From Patescibacteria group bacterium (GTDB lineage: Bacteria; Patescibacteriota; Patescibacteriia; UBA1558; GWA2-36-10), in assembly GCA_041665545.1 (NCBI GenBank), contig JBAYIQ010000001.1:137911-201910 (forward strand): a stretch of 64,000 nt of DNA, written 5' to 3'. A program made the translations under genes and the position numbers. Positions 8,426 to 60,076 of this stretch are shown here, piece after piece. The notes below the pieces were generated by a model, which saw only the letters and a program-made list of their open reading frames with translations, searched no databases and had not been told where the DNA came from. How positions within the stretch are numbered: position 1 is the stretch's first letter; each line of letters begins with the position of its first letter.

Positions 8426-8462
8426 AAAACAGCCCTGCACCGTACGGTGCAGGGCTGTTTTT
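8425..8462. terminator. bidirectional intrinsic terminator (family shared with 2466-2505)
   Basis: A6-CAGCCCTGCACC-GTAC-GGTGCAGGGCTG-T5 between convergent dus and the 1230-aa gene. Confidence 0.75.
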
Positions 8463-28192: not shown

Positions 28193-28271
28193 GGTTTATC
28201 GCCCAGAGGGCGACCCCGTCCCGCAACGCGAGATGGCGACACCACTGCTCTACCAATTGAGCCCGCCCGGC
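28193..28271 (-). pseudogene. tRNA-Thr-like 5' fragment with GC-rich hairpin inserted in the anticodon loop
   Basis: GCCGGGCGGGCTCAATTGGTAGAGCAGTGGTGTCG + 38-nt insert (contains TCGCCCTCTGGGCGA hairpin) + TAAACC; no T arm; 22 nt upstream of intact tRNA-Thr. Confidence 0.6.
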
Positions 28272-28322
28272 ACGCCGATGGCGTAGCCATGGCGGAAGGG
28301 CTATCTCGGCCCAAGGCCGTCT

Positions 28323-51382: not shown

Positions 51383-51507
51383 CTCGTGTCCCTCGACTCA
51401 CTCCGTTCGCTCGGGACACTCGATTCGCAGGAATGAGAATGGTCGGAGGTGCGATAAAGCACCGTAGACCACGAGTGAGTCTTTTGCAAAGCAAAAGGCG
51501 AATCGAG
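51383..51507 (-). repeat. tRNA-trailer structured element, copy E3 (fused to CCA of tRNA-Lys)
   Basis: 125 nt; near-identical to E1 over the tRNA-proximal ~70 nt; followed by AACCCACUGGGUU+U7 terminator (51347-51372). Confidence 0.7.
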
Positions 51508-55882: not shown

Positions 55883-55958
55883 ATAAAATCGTGGTTAATT
55901 TCTACCACGTGCACCTTAGCAAGACACAAGGTAAATATGGCCAATGGAGGTCCTTGAA

Positions 55959-56693
55959 ATGGAAAAGACCGAAAAGACCGCCTTTGCTGTTCTGCACATG
56001 AGCCGTCACGAATCCAGCTCGCCCCAAGCCAACTATGGCCTGGGAACACTGGGTCCCATGGACTACCGCGGAATCCCGGTTCGCTACCACCCCAATTCCT
56101 TCATGCGTGACTCCGGTTACCGCATGCTGGAAATCCAGCTCCCGAAGAACCAGAACGAAGCGGGAGTCGCGATGGCTGTCATGCACGCAGGTCAGATTCG
56201 GGGAGCCATCAGTTCCCTGCAGGATCAGCTCAACAGTCTGACACCGGAAAAGATCTCCCACTACAACCTGATGATCAACGAACTGCTTCGCAAGGGCTAC
56301 CTGATGCACAGCCAAGTCCTCTACTTCAAACCCTGGCAATCCGGTCTCGTGGCCAAGTACGGCTGGGGCATCAATGGCTCTGGTGGCATGGTCATGTTCG
56401 GACAGAACAACTTCGGACAGAGCTTCGGAGTACAGGCCGGACACCAGCTGGTGCAGGTGGTCTTCCGACCCACTCCGTACGCCGACGGACTGATCTGTCG
56501 CTACGGCTGGGGCATCACCGTATGCCAGCCGGAAAGCATCAAACGTGTGCTGAGTGGTCTGCGCAAGCAGCTCGACAACGCCGTGTTCTTCCAGGAGCAC
56601 GGCTGTCTACTCGAAGACTTCGATCGGCCGAGTCTGGCATGCCGACTGATCGCCCGTCAGGCGACCCACGCGTGCCAGCAAACCACCGCATAG
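55959..56693 (+). CDS. high-GC hypothetical protein (244 aa) with duplicated YGWGI motif
   Basis: GGAGG 8 nt before ATG 55959 (tracked ORF starts 55944); VAKYGWGINGSGG and ICRYGWGITVCQ; no family recognised. Confidence 0.65.
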   Translation: MEKTEKTAFAVLHMSRHESSSPQANYGLGTLGPMDYRGIPVRYHPNSFMRDSGYRMLEIQLPKNQNEAGVAMAVMHAGQIRGAISSLQDQLNSLTPEKISHYNLMINELLRKGYLMHSQVLYFKPWQSGLVAKYGWGINGSGGMVMFGQNNFGQSFGVQAGHQLVQVVFRPTPYADGLICRYGWGITVCQPESIKRVLSGLRKQLDNAVFFQEHGCLLEDFDRPSLACRLIARQATHACQQTTA

Positions 56694-56721
56694 CGAGCAA
56701 CTGCTTGCTACGGTGACAACG

Positions 56722-56768
56722 ACAGGACATTTTCTGACGCCAAGCGTCTGAAGGTGTCCTGTTTTCTT
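56722..56768 (+). terminator. terminator of cassette 5
   Basis: ACAGGACA ... TGTCCTGT stem then TTTTCTT. Confidence 0.7.
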
Positions 56769-56771
56769 ATA

Positions 56772-56800
56772 TTGACAATAGCTATATTATATGCTATAAT
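56772..56800 (+). promoter_or_regulatory. promoter of cassette 6 (TTGACA-N17-TATAAT, TGc extended -10)
   Basis: TTGACA 56772-56777, TATAAT 56795-56800. Confidence 0.6.
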
Positions 56801-56858
56801 ATTAAATGTACCCCAGGATTCTAGTCTCGGGTTGTTCATTTCCAAGGAGGGATTTCTC

Positions 56859-57257
56859 ATGAGTCCGAAACAGCTTGCTGCCATCCCGTTCTGCATTTTG
56901 ACCGTAGTTGCCATGTTCTTATGGGTTGCCGGTCGTCCCACTGGCAAGCCCGACACAACGCGACTCTTCTCAATTGGGACTGATGCCCATCAGGTTCCGT
57001 GTGGTGACATCGGCTACGATGCCACCTTCCGCTACTATGCCGGAAACGACACGGCGGGCGTGACGGTAGCCAATCTCAATCCCGGGCTCGTAACGATCCA
57101 TCTCATGGATCGCCTGAGCAGGGATATCTACGGACGCAAACCCGTGCGGATCAACGGTGATCAGGCCAACCTGGAGATCATCAACAACGCCACCAATGAG
57201 GTGATTTGCCGCTGGCAGATCACCATCGATCGTCAGGTCGGTGTTGCCACCCGCTGA
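56859..57257 (+). CDS. high-GC small membrane-anchored/secreted protein (132 aa)
   Basis: CAAGGAGGGA RBS 7 nt before ATG 56859; N-terminal hydrophobic helix AAIPFCILTVVAMFLWVAG. Confidence 0.65.
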   Translation: MSPKQLAAIPFCILTVVAMFLWVAGRPTGKPDTTRLFSIGTDAHQVPCGDIGYDATFRYYAGNDTAGVTVANLNPGLVTIHLMDRLSRDIYGRKPVRINGDQANLEIINNATNEVICRWQITIDRQVGVATR

Positions 57258-57297
57258 GTACGCCCTCCTCCGGTCAGGCCACAAATGCCCGACCAAA

Positions 57298-57342
57298 ACT
57301 CGTCGTCCATATCTTTTGGATCAAGCGACGAGTTTTCTTTTT
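57298..57342 (+). terminator. terminator of cassette 6
   Basis: ACTCGTCG ... CGACGAGT stem then TTTTCTTTTT. Confidence 0.7.
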
Positions 57343-57399
57343 ACAAAAAAACCACTAAATAAATTAGTGGCTCTATAAACAAATTATTTCTAGATTTAG

Positions 57400-57990
57400 C
57401 TAAGATTTAACTATTATACAACGACCAGTAAAACCGGCCTTAAATTTTTCTAGTTCTATAAATTTATATTGCCAATTATAGTCAGGGATTATAGAAGTAT
57501 GATTAACATAAAACCCTTTTATATTTTCTATATTACCCTCAAATCCTACAATAAGAGCTAAATGGCCTCCAAATCTTTTCCAGAAAAAAATTCTTTCCCT
57601 GAGTGGTTTATAATCTTCGAAAGCCCATTTGATTGAAATAATTGGTAGACAATTTTGCTTTAATGCCTCGCCTAGTTGAACAGAATCTACATTGCACTGG
57701 GTCGTTGCCTGAAAACCATACTCTTGAGCCAAACGAACTAACCCGCCATGACTCCACCCGGAAGAATCTTTATAGGCACCAAACTCAATACCTTTTTTAA
57801 TATATTCTATTATTGATGGTGAAAGGGGTTTAGCTTGCATTGCGAGAAATCCATCTATTGCCATTTTAAGGCACAAAATACCACACGAAGATTTTTCCTA
57901 ATATTCAGCGTCCTTAGAACTCTTAAAACCGAGCTCCTGCCATTTAGACAAATCCCACTTTTGTGAATAAAATGGCACTTCTATTTTCAC
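57400..57990 (-). pseudogene. C39-like cysteine peptidase with an in-frame TAG (57898-57900)
   Basis: GTG 57990: VKIEVPFYSQKWDLSKWQELGFKSSKDAEY*EKSSCGILCLKMAIDGF...; both halves in one frame; stop lies just before the catalytic SCG motif. Confidence 0.6.
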
Positions 57991-58087
57991 GGAATTTATT
58001 TCTTTTCTTATTATATAAAAACTGGCCGTCGCACCTGCCTGTCTGCCGATAGGCGGGCACTTGACCCAATAGCATATATTTACTATC

Positions 58088-58139
58088 GAATGGTCGTAGA
58101 CCACGAGTGAGTCTTTTGCGAAGCAAAAGGCGAATCGAG
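58088..58139 (-). repeat. truncated tRNA-trailer element, copy E4
   Basis: GAATGGTCGTAGACCACGAGTGAGTCTTTTGCGAAGCAAAAGGCGAATCGAG = E1/E3 proximal module with its internal hairpin deleted. Confidence 0.65.
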
Positions 58140-58211
58140 TGGTGGGCATAAGAGGACTTCCGCCTCCGCCCCTCACTTTGTTCGGGGCTATGGCGGACAG
58201 GCGAACCTCTG
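58140..58211 (-). pseudogene. orphan tRNA 3' fragment (T arm + acceptor + CCA) with GC-rich hairpin inserted in the T loop
   Basis: AGAGGTTCG + 42-nt insert (CCTGTCCGCC...GGAGGCGG) + AAGTCCTCT TATGCCCA CCA; no D or anticodon arm upstream. Confidence 0.55.
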
Positions 58212-58224
58212 ATTATTTTAGAAA

Positions 58225-58301: not shown

Positions 58302-58531
58302 ATATTAATAACCAACTGCTTGTCCGCCAAAGCTCCAAGGGAGCGACGGCGGAAGCTATATGCCCTTAAATAATAAACTACCGAAAATGGCTTAGCCATC
58401 CGTAGCTCCAAATAAAAATAACTATACTTTATACGTTTTGTCATCCTACTCCGCCAGCTGGCGGATATGGATGACATCCTTCGCACCGCGAAGGATGGTA
58501 AAAACCCTTAGCATTCAAAGCTATTTTCTTT

Positions 58532-58606
58532 TGGTGACCTCTAGGGGAATCGAACCCCTGTTGCCAGGATGAGAACCTAGTGTCCTAACCACTAGACGAA
58601 GAGGCC
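58532..58606 (-). tRNA. tRNA-Glu (anticodon CTC), CCA encoded
   Basis: GGCCTCT/AGAGGTC acceptor, loop TTCTCAT, T arm AGGGGTTCGATTCCCCT; flanked by 15-nt inverted repeat (58517-58531 / 58613-58628). Confidence 0.9.
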
Positions 58607-58637
58607 AGAACCAAAAGAAAATAGCTTTTAGAATAAA

Positions 58638-58747
58638 GGTTGCCTGCCCGCCGAAGCTTTGAGCGTAGCGAGGAGCGAAGGCGGGAGAACCTGATGTCCT
58701 AACCGCTCGCCTCGCTTCGCGAGCGAAGCGGGTTAGACGATGGGGCC
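58638..58747 (-). pseudogene. tRNA-Glu-like 5' fragment with GC-rich hairpins in D loop and after the anticodon
   Basis: GGCCCCATCGTCTAAC + 27-nt insert + GGTTAGGACATCAGGTTCTC + 38-nt insert + CAGGCAACC; no T arm; TTGACT-N17-TTTAAT promoter just upstream (about 58760-58790). Confidence 0.6.
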
Positions 58748-58795
58748 AAAACACTGGATATTAAATCAAAAATTTAGCTAAAAGTCAAAGTTATA

Positions 58796-60076
58796 CTATT
58801 TTTTCACAGACCCCACCAAATATTCCCCTGCCTCCCAAGGTCGAGCCATAAGTTCATAAACTATCTGCTCCATTTTCATGCCCCGTGAACCTTTGACCAA
58901 AATAACATCACCAATCTTTATCCTCTCTTGCAAAAAAATACCAGCTTCAAGGGTTTTGGGAAAATGAAAAATTTTATCTTCACTCAGGCCGGCCTGTATA
59001 GCGCCTCTAGCAATGTCCCTGGATCGCTCACCAACGACAAACAAATAATCTATTTTCAAATCATAAACCATTTTGCCAACCCTTCGGTGATCATTTTCAC
59101 TCTCAGCGCCTAGCTCCAGCATATCGCCAAAAACAGCAATTTTTCTACCCTGACTGGGTAACTCGCTTAAGATTTGCAAAGCCACCTTGGAAGACTGCGG
59201 AGAAGAATTGTAGCTATCATCAATCAACCAGCTATTTTTCACACCAGGCAAAAGCTTGGTGCGCCCTGACGCTGACTGATAATTTTGAATATTTTCCGCT
59301 GTCTCTACTAGGTTGAGACCCATAACCAGAGCCACTGTACAGGCAGAAGCTGCGGCTAGAGCATGCTGACTGCCTAAAACATTTGGCAAAAACACTGGCA
59401 ATTCTGCGCCTTGATAATGTATCTTGAAATTGGTGCCATATGTTTCATCATGGAAAGTAAGATGTATATTAGAAATTTTGACATCACAAGTATCGCTCAA
59501 ACCAAATGTTTTGACTGGTGCTGGGCTATTTTTTTTCAAACTTTGTAAAAATGGATCGTCGCCATTGAAGATTATCCAATCATGACTGCCCAGACGCTTA
59601 GTAATACTAATTTTTTCTTTGGCAATATTTTCTATTGAACCAAAATATTCCAAGTGACTTTGGCCGATAGCAGTAATGACGGCAATGTTTGGCTTAGCCA
59701 AACTAGTCAAATATTGTATATCTTGCGGCCGGTCAGCGCCCATTTCCAAAATCAATACTTGTGGATATTTTTTATTCTTAAACAAAAGCAAACGCCAGGC
59801 CTTAAAAATTATACTAAGCCAAGAAAAAATATTCTTGCCACCGCTCTTAGCCGAACCCAAAATAGCCAAGGGCAAACCCAATTCATTGTTAAAATTTTTA
59901 GCGCTACGCCCCACTTTATATTTATTTTTTAAAACCGCAAAAACTGCCTCTTTAGCTGAGGTTTTGCCCACAGAGCCGGTAATACCAATAATACGCGGCT
60001 GGTATTTTTTAATTACTGCCTTGATTAATGGCTTCAAAAGCCAAGAAATAAACTTACGATACTGTCTTTTGTTCAT
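58796..60076 (-). CDS. murF: UDP-MurNAc-tripeptide--D-Ala-D-Ala ligase
   Basis: GITGSVGKTSAKE, Mur ligase middle and C-terminal domains; dcw context. Confidence 0.85.
   Translation of the reverse strand: MNKRQYRKFISWLLKPLIKAVIKKYQPRIIGITGSVGKTSAKEAVFAVLKNKYKVGRSAKNFNNELGLPLAILGSAKSGGKNIFSWLSIIFKAWRLLLFKNKKYPQVLILEMGADRPQDIQYLTSLAKPNIAVITAIGQSHLEYFGSIENIAKEKISITKRLGSHDWIIFNGDDPFLQSLKKNSPAPVKTFGLSDTCDVKISNIHLTFHDETYGTNFKIHYQGAELPVFLPNVLGSQHALAAASACTVALVMGLNLVETAENIQNYQSASGRTKLLPGVKNSWLIDDSYNSSPQSSKVALQILSELPSQGRKIAVFGDMLELGAESENDHRRVGKMVYDLKIDYLFVVGERSRDIARGAIQAGLSEDKIFHFPKTLEAGIFLQERIKIGDVILVKGSRGMKMEQIVYELMARPWEAGEYLVGSVKK

Follow-up and report, generated by a model that had tools for sequence, protein, structure and literature searches.

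Split tRNA-Glu gene, GC-rich hairpin inserts and a replacement tRNA cassette in the genome of a Patescibacteria group bacterium

We analysed a stretch of 64,000 nucleotides (nt) from the genome of a Patescibacteria group bacterium (contig JBAYIQ010000001.1), hereafter called the window, and in particular a truncated tRNA-Glu gene that carries two GC-rich hairpin inserts and stands upstream of an intact tRNA-Glu(CUC) gene. All coordinates are positions in the window, and all features of this tRNA-Glu locus, which is found downstream of murF, lie on the minus strand. A slash between two tRNA positions, or between two letters of a target site, marks the point of insertion. The locus comprises the following features:

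58796-60076: murF
58760-58788, minus strand: promoter-like block of predicted role, TTGACT (58788-58783), 17 nt, TTTAAT (58765-58760), read directly
58637-58747, minus strand: 5′ relic of the resident tRNA-Glu(CUC), nt 1-41 with two inserts within, 41/41 identity to orthologues
58705-58731, minus strand: insert 1, a GC-rich hairpin of 27 nt that follows nt 15 or 16 in the D loop, placed by alignment to the native allele
58643-58685, minus strand: insert 2, a hairpin module of 43 nt, CCCGCC...GGCGGG-CAGG, inserted at nt 35/36 of the anticodon loop (T/CAA)
58509-58636, minus strand: 128-nt cassette consisting of leader, inverted repeat, tRNA-Glu′, inverted repeat and GAATGCTA (8 nt)
58610-58628: left arm of a perfect 19-nt inverted repeat (AAAGCTATTTTCTTTTGGT on the minus strand), 100% complementary
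58532-58606, minus strand: intact tRNA-Glu(CUC), the replacement allele Glu′, called by ARAGORN and by Rfam with 59.4 bits
58517-58535: right arm of the inverted repeat, starting with the discriminator base and CCA of tRNA-Glu′
58503-58508, minus strand: 3′ relic stub of the resident tRNA-Glu, AGGGTT, corresponding to nt 49-54
58439-58502, minus strand: GC hairpins that start within the former T loop (TTTACC..., palindrome TCCGCCAGCTGGCGGA)
58309-58365, minus strand: second 5′ relic, nt 1-22, tRNA-Val-like and upstream of tRNA-Val, with a 35-nt hairpin at nt 12/13 (58353-58319)

Read on the minus strand, the tRNA-Glu relic runs from GGCCCCATCGTCTAAC (58747-58732) through the 27-nt insert (58731-58705), GGTTAGGACATCAGGTTCTC (58704-58685) and the second GC-rich insert to a last piece, AACCT, with which it ends at 58637, i.e. 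at nt 41, within the 3′ strand of the anticodon stem. A 30-nt AT-rich leader and the intact tRNA-Glu(CUC) (58606-58532) follow. The initial annotation of this DNA, made from the sequence alone, had described a tRNA-Glu-like 5′ fragment with two GC-rich inserts behind a TTGACT-N17-TTTAAT promoter, and this is indeed present on the minus strand at 58747-58637. The second insert measures 43 nt rather than the 38 nt given there (its bounds are 58685-58643 or 58684-58642, a 1-nt ambiguity), and the letters GCAGGCAACC, taken for the variable region, are a coincidental match that was mis-assigned, as the relic stops at nt 41.

The six tRNAs that ARAGORN and the Rfam tRNA model RF00005 recognize in the window do not include the relic, even at E ≤ 5. 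Rfam gave no match of any kind at the relic, either at the gathering threshold or at E ≤ 5, and its non-tRNA matches were weak and all elsewhere. What remains after removal of the inserts is nt 1-41 and not a complete cloverleaf; a search that tolerated up to 3 mismatches located the native tRNA-Glu 3′ end nowhere in the window, and neither a T arm nor a 3′ acceptor strand is present. The 261-nt region folds far better than its shuffles (z = -6.1), and a terminator scan of the region predicted no terminator-like site. The promoter-like block is kept in the related loci L004, L005, L006 and L013; a consensus promoter scan did not flag it because TTTAAT lacks an A at position 2. The DNA of the region is identical among independent JGI, ENA and Logan assemblies, which excludes an assembly artefact.

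By its gene content and its MurF homologues, the organism falls among the Candidate Phyla Radiation (CPR)/Parcubacteria. Relatives were obtained via their MurF homologues, and six of them carry a single intact tRNA-Glu(CUC), beginning GGCCCCATCGTCTAACGGTTAGGACATCAGGTTCTCAACCTGG..., at the same position. These are L005 and L012 (MurF 93% identical to that of the window), L013 (79%), L014 (78%), L015 (77%) and L006 (76%); the MurF of a further relative, L004, is 93% identical. Once the inserts are removed, the relic equals nt 1-41 of this native gene in all six relatives, 41/41 with zero mismatches, and it lies at the same distance from the murF promoter block as the native gene does there. Such an exact match to the orthologous gene does not arise by chance. 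The neighbouring intact tRNA-Glu, to which the initial annotation had matched the fragment almost base for base, is only ~80% identical to it (18/20 over nt 17-36; ~9 of 46 positions differ). As judged from these alignments, the fragment is shown to be the dead 5′ piece of the resident gene and no decayed copy of its neighbour. The notion of a decay pathway for duplicated tRNAs accordingly gives way, for this locus, to that of a resident gene split by a cassette with a different allele.

Some further observations concern the same junction. A 9-nt mini-relic, GGCCCCATC, which corresponds to tRNA-Glu nt 1-9, is found in L005, L012, L013, L014 and L015 (degenerate in the last) ~26-35 nt upstream of the native tRNA-Glu, where the relic of the window starts; ~25 nt follow it and then the intact gene, which suggests an older small insertion or duplication at nt 9/10. 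In five independent assemblies (L003, L005, L006, L012 and L015) the contig ends inside or shortly after the murF/tRNA-Glu junction, and such breaks fit population heterogeneity or repeats at the locus. Three metagenome-assembled genomes (MAGs; L005, L006 and L009) are labelled 'uncultured Gammaproteobacteria' and yet have a Parcubacteria-type locus; this is probably a binning or taxonomic mislabelling, and perhaps the label reflects a host-epibiont association.

What split the gene? The 128-nt cassette stands between native nt 41 and native nt 49, with 7 resident nt missing and no target duplication flanking it. It is common to the window and L004 and is not present in L005, L006, L012, L013, L014 or L015. 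Its tRNA, Glu′, is distinct from the native allele in every arm and identical in L004, the only one of the relatives that has it. In L004 the remainder of the native gene comes after Glu′ and the inverted repeat: nt 49-54, then a hairpin of 34 nt inserted in the T loop, then nt 55-75, which show no mismatch. The window keeps an L004-like junction, AGGGTT followed by TTTACC..., and nt 55-75 are gone; the 16-nt palindrome TCCGCCAGCTGGCGGA is present in L004 and in L014, too. Compared with L004, the window has 109 extra nt (58745-58637), which coincide exactly with the 5′ relic. Native tRNA-Glu adjoins tRNA-Val in L013 and L005, so that everything that lies between the two in the window is new. 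The two cassette-bearing genomes, compared with the others, show an ancestral structure that we reconstruct as native nt 1-41, the 128-nt cassette and native nt 49-75; by the same reconstruction, the 5′ piece was afterwards lost in L004 and most of the 3′ piece in the window.

The inverted repeat that encloses Glu′, perfect over 19 nt and extending up to ~27 nt, is the longest leader/trailer repeat among 122 tRNAs. Perfect leader/trailer repeats of 12-19 nt occur in 11 of these 122 (window, L043, L041, L035, L047, L074, L029), many of them intact copies beside relics. From locus to locus these repeats show no sequence relationship, and many of the left arms have (T)GGT as their last letters, the complement of ACC(A). 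The repeat could be a processing helix or a by-product of cassette formation. Scans of viral contigs returned a single one-arm chance match to the inverted repeat, no match to tRNA-Glu′ and, for the core of the hairpin module M described below, 11 chance matches on high-GC contigs without tRNAs; a phage origin is thus unsupported.

The two hairpin inserts of the 5′ relic have their first 12-13 nt, CCCGC(C)TTCGCT, in common. Terminal motifs are likewise shared among the inserts of other loci, which answers the check for common termini proposed in the initial annotation. The ends of insert 2 (CCCGCCTTCG...CTTCGGCGGGCAGG) recur in Thr and Tyr relics of L025, L026, L034 and L039, and insert 2 also resembles a module in the window's own relic upstream of tRNA-Val. 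In 17 catalogued instances of this family CA follows the insert, the sites being AGCT/CAG (nt 12/13), GGT/CAA (Tyr D loop) and TCT/CAA (Glu anticodon loop). Over all modules, the preferred sites are T/CA and G/TAA or G/AAA. For the pattern CCGCC-N3-5-GGCGG, the window has 5 occurrences where 0.03 would be expected. We catalogued 46 distinct inserts in 5′ relics from ~60 loci, which are not all independent events: the anticodon loop holds 27 and the D loop 10, and T-loop cases were found in 3′ relics. Both orientations were seen, and the modules are not flanked by target duplications. The earlier observation that the hairpins sit precisely in single-stranded tRNA loops is therefore right for the 37 of 46 in the D or anticodon loop and too strict as a rule, since the T/CA family also occupies nt 12/13, inside the D stem.

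The relic upstream of tRNA-Val allows the order of events to be read. It is orthologous in three genomes (window 58309-58365, L004 7582-7650, L014 6761-6790) and is free of inserts in L014, contains the 35-nt hairpin at nt 12/13 in the window and, in L004, a perfect palindrome of 20 nt at nt 22/23. These three states of one relic indicate that hairpins were gained on already existing relics. On the other side, between tRNA-Val and rplU, lies a stretch of ~2.3 kb (55900-58220) with a GC content of 0.485 against ~0.39 and with open reading frames (ORFs) without Pfam match; it differs in length and content in L004, L013 and L014 and is probably a hot spot for foreign DNA beside the tRNA cluster.

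Is the split tRNA-Glu gene an isolated case? The Tyr and Thr cases named in the initial annotation do exist (20311-20234 and 28310-28193), and the tRNA-Tyr locus encodes in addition a small predicted nuclease:

20234-20311, minus strand: tRNA-Tyr relic, consisting of nt 1-35, module M (20276-20241) and nt 36-42
19983-20222, minus strand: predicted gene of an 80-amino-acid (aa) GIY-YIG nuclease between the Tyr relic and the intact tRNA-Tyr (Pfam PF01541, E 2.7e-12)
19965-19880, minus strand: intact replacement tRNA-Tyr, another allele than the relic
28193-28310, minus strand: tRNA-Thr(CGU) 5′ relic with an insert near nt 11/12 and an M-like double hairpin (28236-28199) after G35, read directly

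At the tRNA-Tyr locus, too, the undisturbed gene is preserved in a relative. L095, which comes from the same MAG as L005 and whose neighbouring TPR protein is 96% identical to that of the window, has an uninterrupted tRNA-Tyr that equals the relic of the window over 42/42 nt, without M and without the ORF. A second empty site, L097, likewise has an intact tRNA-Tyr and neither ORF nor M. The polymorphism by which homing endonuclease genes are recognized, namely presence in some genomes and an intact target at the empty site in others, is thus seen in L095 and L097. The comparison shows a tRNA-Tyr of the window that was, to all appearance, replaced in the manner of tRNA-Glu, here by a cassette with a GIY-YIG gene. 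Read in this way, two tRNA genes (Glu and Tyr) are shown to have been destroyed and replaced since the split from a sister lineage at 93-96% protein identity. The Thr relic lies between asnS and tRNA-Thr(CGU) and ends at nt 41, 22 nt before the intact gene; its boundaries are provisional. BLAST gave a partial match for it, and its module architecture was compared with that of the Thr locus L044.

Module M of the tRNA-Tyr relic is a 36-nt double hairpin, CCACCGCC-N-GGCGGGGTGCCGCC-N-GGCGGCA. We found 39 copies in 33 loci, each within a partial tRNA, and in 0 of the 39 does excision restore a full tRNA. Stem sequences are invariant and loop sequences unconstrained, with covariation at two base pairs. 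M was met, too, in 3′ relics that lie shortly behind intact Tyr, Ser and Pro genes, in Thr relics without an ORF and, in inverted orientation, in an Ile D loop; in L021 and L068 it stands on both sides of the intact tRNA. We considered an integron-like or Campbell-type integration with M as the crossover site, which would explain these last two cases. Across tRNA remnants of related Parcubacteria, the alignments show what we regard as recurrent module families, placed at preferred sites and in both orientations. We infer that the modules act like small mobile or copied elements with a choice of site, which persist in dead tRNA copies only.

The GIY-YIG domain takes up residues 2-68 of the 80 aa of the Tyr-locus protein, whose homologues have 78-90 aa. 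Y5, Y16, G18, R26, H30 and E62 are invariant in 27 homologues, and the protein thus has both the domain and the catalytic Tyr, Tyr, Arg, His and Glu that define the superfamily. In a profile search of the PDB, the best matches were the UPF0213 structures 1zg2 and 1ywl, followed by the structure-specific nuclease SLX1; NCBIfam holds no model that matches the ORF. The initial annotation had suggested RAYT or IS200/IS605-type transposases as mobilizing enzymes. Gene calls and Pfam scans of the 64-kb window revealed no RAYT, no IS200/IS605 transposase, no Phage_integrase and no recombinase, and the small GIY-YIG nuclease at tRNA-Tyr is the sole candidate enzyme in the window.

A metagenome scan with the GIY-YIG alignment yielded 65 loci (L019-L083), and the small ORFs in them are nearly always surrounded by tRNA sequence. 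The ORF ends -38 to +40 nt from the start of a tRNA-Tyr in ~40 of the loci, of a tRNA-Ser in ~10 and of a tRNA-Pro in one. In nearly all Tyr loci with sufficient upstream DNA, a 5′ tRNA copy precedes the ORF and contains M exactly at nt 35/36. Several of these Tyr copies have a 22-nt D-loop hairpin as well, so that the two sites occupied in them are those of the Glu relic. More distant GIY-YIG homologues lie between an intact tRNA (Arg, Ala, Val or Ser), 30-66 nt downstream of it, and a hairpin followed by a 3′ relic that starts at nt 43-45. The family as a whole comprises 19,442 cluster representatives at E ≤ 0.001. Its gene calls frequently have N-terminal extensions that translate M ('TA..GGVPP') or tRNA arms ('GSNP', 'AEW'), and some C-termini run into a downstream class II tRNA ('ERWQSG').

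Such misreadings were also met in single records. Relics and hairpins give rise to spurious ORFs, for instance one of 77 aa at 58521-58754 of the window, and false N- or C-terminal extensions are present in P0130, P0138 and P0275-P0340, e.g. 'GQTATARGRGAARGGINL' before the GIY-YIG start codon. Other repeats and tRNA alleles of the window deserve mention. A conserved structured repeat of ~100 nt, CTCGATTCGCCTTTTGCTTCGCAAAAG...TGGTC..GACCA...GAATCGAGTGTCCCGAGCGAA, directly follows the CCA of tRNA-Thr(GGU) and of tRNA-Lys. Its copies lie at 19550-19663, 51400-51507 and 58100-58145 (minus strand), the last ~85 nt downstream of tRNA-Val, and it is found also in L007, L013 and L014, some copies having extra hairpins nested in their loops. 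Two nearly identical 28-nt GC palindromes at gene ends (2471-2498 and 8430-8457), CAGCCC(C/T)GCACCGTA(T/C)GGTG(T/C)(G/A)GGGCTG, produce false weak Thr_leader matches in Rfam and are probably terminators or another repeat family. tRNA-Thr(GGU) (19664-19739) is identical to its counterpart in L095 (4121-4196) over the 5′ two-thirds but differs in the T arm, where the changes compensate one another; it agrees with the allele of L097, and this pattern suggests, on sequence grounds, an allele exchange or recombination inside the tRNA.

How could these structures have arisen? We favour, with moderate confidence, an explanation in which the resident tRNA-Glu was split, its function was taken over from a cassette, hairpins were gained later, and the whole belongs to a wider process of tRNA-gene replacement. 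In an ancestor common to the window and L004, a 128-nt segment entered tRNA-Glu between nt 41 and 49 with the loss of seven nt. The incoming Glu′ would have taken over the function, most likely driven by the old promoter and with the relic read through as a transcribed leader. The orphaned pieces then gained GC-rich stem-loop modules in the D loop, the anticodon loop and, on the 3′ piece, the T loop. In the wider process, a tRNA gene would be disrupted and replaced at once by a linked intact copy. An autonomous-looking version, as at the tRNA-Tyr of the window, also encodes the 80-aa Slx1/UPF0213-like GIY-YIG nuclease. This enzyme may be what breaks the tRNA gene, and the cassette may then be installed, similar to homing (cf. 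T4 SegB, PMC2330249), when the break is repaired from a donor that bears it. The ORF-less Glu cassette would be a non-autonomous or degenerate derivative.

Several observations weigh against this explanation. No nuclease or other enzyme gene lies in or beside the Glu cassette, whose tie to the GIY-YIG system would be a likeness of architecture. The geometry of the Glu event, with 7 nt lost and a whole tRNA inserted, is not that of the Tyr event, with the 5′ part duplicated, and the two may be different processes. The 80-aa protein is a catalytic domain only, without the DNA-binding domain of classical homing endonucleases. Inserts 1 and 2 have no second copy in the 64-kb window, and their mobility in this genome is deduced from other genomes. 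Many of the catalogued inserts, especially M in Tyr relics, may stem from few events, so that the enrichment in loops is no count of independent insertions. The 3′ ends of relics spread from nt 40 to nt 49 across loci, and the break is thus at no single fixed position; the idea that all relics end exactly at nt 41/42, which is true of the three in the window, was dropped in view of this wider catalogue. Finally, the perfect leader/trailer inverted repeats around cassette tRNAs find no explanation in it.

Part of this could be accommodated by ordinary gene flow, i.e. illegitimate or homology-facilitated recombination, for example after DNA uptake, combined with generic repeats similar to repetitive extragenic palindromes (REPs) that settle in dispensable DNA, without any tRNA-targeting system and without a role for GIY-YIG proteins. 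Hairpins of the same style are scattered in intergenic DNA of the window and its relatives and are not confined to relics, the stretch after tRNA-Val is variable, GC-rich and different between relatives, the Glu locus has no enzyme gene, and relic ends vary from nt 40 to nt 49, all as one would expect from such gene flow. We nevertheless consider it unlikely, though by far the most serious competitor: Glu and Tyr were both replaced by the same isoacceptor since the sister split at 93-96% protein identity, dozens of loci repeat the order of relic, module, ORF and tRNA, with an identical insertion point for the module, and module M is found in partial tRNAs only. The footprint of a classical integrase-driven element, a prophage or an integrative and conjugative element, that entered a tRNA gene and later decayed is a very improbable source. 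Integration into tRNA genes is known to leave partial tRNA genes behind (PMC9897764), and in L097 and L098 a gene of the Phage_integrase family lies a few hundred nt past the Tyr/Thr cluster; yet there is no integrase within 10 kb of the Glu locus or in the gene calls of the window, the inserted segment has 128 nt and is made of a tRNA, and the pieces form no direct repeat of an attachment (att) core, the gene being split with 7 nt lost.

That the fragment is the decayed upstream copy of a local tandem duplication of the neighbouring tRNA-Glu might seem natural, since it lies 30 nt upstream of that gene, has the same anticodon and is ~80% alike. This origin is already contradicted by the 41/41 match to the orthologue of six relatives, against ~9 differences in 46 positions from the neighbour, and by L004, which has the matching 3′ piece of the native gene on the other side of the neighbour; Glu′ itself is not present in those six relatives. 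We give it next to no credence. It is similarly implausible that the fragment is a functional RNA, be it a tRNA that is split or contains an intron, or a structured leader with a regulatory effect on the tRNA behind it. The strong fold (z = -6.1), its place between a conserved promoter-like block and a tRNA with no terminator predicted, and the use of positions 34/35 to 36/37 by group I introns in Patescibacteria tRNAs (PMC13011429) would agree with such a function. Against it, no T arm or 3′ acceptor strand exists anywhere in the window, L004 has tRNA-Glu′ without the fragment, 27 and 43 nt are far too short for a group I intron and match nothing in Rfam, and removal of the module gives a complete tRNA in 0/39 cases. 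Two specific candidates do not fit: group I intron remnants, on account of size, the lack of a match to any Rfam model, RF00028 included, at E ≤ 5 and a G instead of a U before the Tyr insertion, and an archaeal-type bulge-helix-bulge intron or split tRNA, as the 3′ part is missing from the window and the 5′ part from L004, and 0/39 modules are flanked by a full tRNA.

Beyond the locus itself, we put forward only tentatively, and with more doubt than conviction, that minimal selfish cassettes aimed at tRNA genes exist, as a class so far undescribed, in the CPR/Parcubacteria and possibly in many more bacteria. In this class, a stand-alone 80-aa GIY-YIG nuclease of the Slx1/UPF0213 type would break the resident tRNA gene near the anticodon arm, a replacement tRNA or tRNA part of the same identity would be installed, the broken copy would be marked by the GC double hairpin, and the host would then depend on the cassette, with ORF-less cassettes and free modules as non-autonomous relatives. 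Our literature searches found no description of the relic-hairpin-replacement architecture, and we found no report that essential tRNA genes in the reduced CPR genomes are destroyed and replaced over short evolutionary times. To our knowledge, no cellular function has been established for the UPF0213/YhbQ-like proteins, and the loci described here offer a testable function and a context for this very large family of stand-alone GIY-YIG proteins. If true, the proposal would amount to a compact mobility strategy in which the target is disrupted and its replacement supplied, and which might serve for insertion at tRNA genes. There are also practical consequences, as relics hide behind intact tRNA predictions, produce spurious ORFs and false N-terminal extensions and coincide with contig breaks in MAGs.

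How does the relic system relate to known ones? T4 SegB is a GIY-YIG homing endonuclease that recognizes tRNA genes and spreads with neighbouring tRNA genes (PMC2330249). As here, a GIY-YIG gene stands among tRNA genes with its target inside tRNA genes; SegB spreads with the adjacent tRNA genes and displaces the tRNA-region markers of the recipient, and presence or absence differs among close relatives. SegB is, however, a full-size phage-borne enzyme that includes a DNA-binding part, and its target is not left split or partial, whereas we find an 80-aa catalytic domain of predicted nuclease function, without the added sequence-specific DNA-binding domain of homing endonucleases, in a cellular CPR genome, with relic pieces beside the replacement copy, a conserved double hairpin at the break and, at Glu, a cassette without ORF. 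The att fragments left by integrases (PMC9897764) share with the relics the insertion into a tRNA gene that is offset by supplied tRNA sequence, and a dead fragment beside an intact gene. They differ in that the 3′ part is duplicated and kilobase-sized, integrase-dependent elements are flanked, while here 5′ and/or 3′ pieces surround an insert of 128 nt to ~400 nt with no integrase present. At Glu, the pieces (nt 1-41 and nt 49-75) do not form a direct repeat of a tRNA segment at both ends; in Tyr-type loci, unlike Glu, the 5′ part of the tRNA is duplicated.

REPs and bacterial interspersed mosaic elements with their RAYT proteins, as well as other hairpin repeats and miniature inverted-repeat transposable elements (MITEs), resemble the modules as short GC-rich palindromes in non-coding DNA that are nested and have conserved stems and variable loops. 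In contrast to these, no RAYT or IS200/IS605 gene is present in the window, neither the cassette nor the hairpin modules have the terminal inverted repeats with target-site duplication of MITEs and DDE elements, and the modules are strongly tied to defined positions of tRNA-gene remnants. Mitochondrial GC clusters and the double-hairpin or repetitive hairpin-forming elements of sponge mitochondrial DNA (PMC2800124) are also GC-rich hairpins that invade an AT-rich compact genome, with conserved helices, substitutions in the loops and some copies in structural RNA genes; they belong to organelle genomes, and no coupling to tRNA-gene replacement or to a nuclease gene is reported for them. The group I introns of Patescibacteria tRNAs (PMC13011429) occur in the same phylum and at the same anticodon-loop positions, 34/35, 35/36 and 36/37, but they are self-splicing ribozymes of at least 200 nt in complete tRNA genes, whereas the inserts described here have 27-43 nt, occur in incomplete genes only and match no intron model. 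The Glu relic system thus lacks the defining features of integrase att fragments, MITEs, group I introns and split or intron-containing tRNAs. By analogy, its closest working likeness would be the homing of a free-standing GIY-YIG gene within a cluster of tRNA genes, together with hairpin repeats such as REPs or mitochondrial GC clusters.

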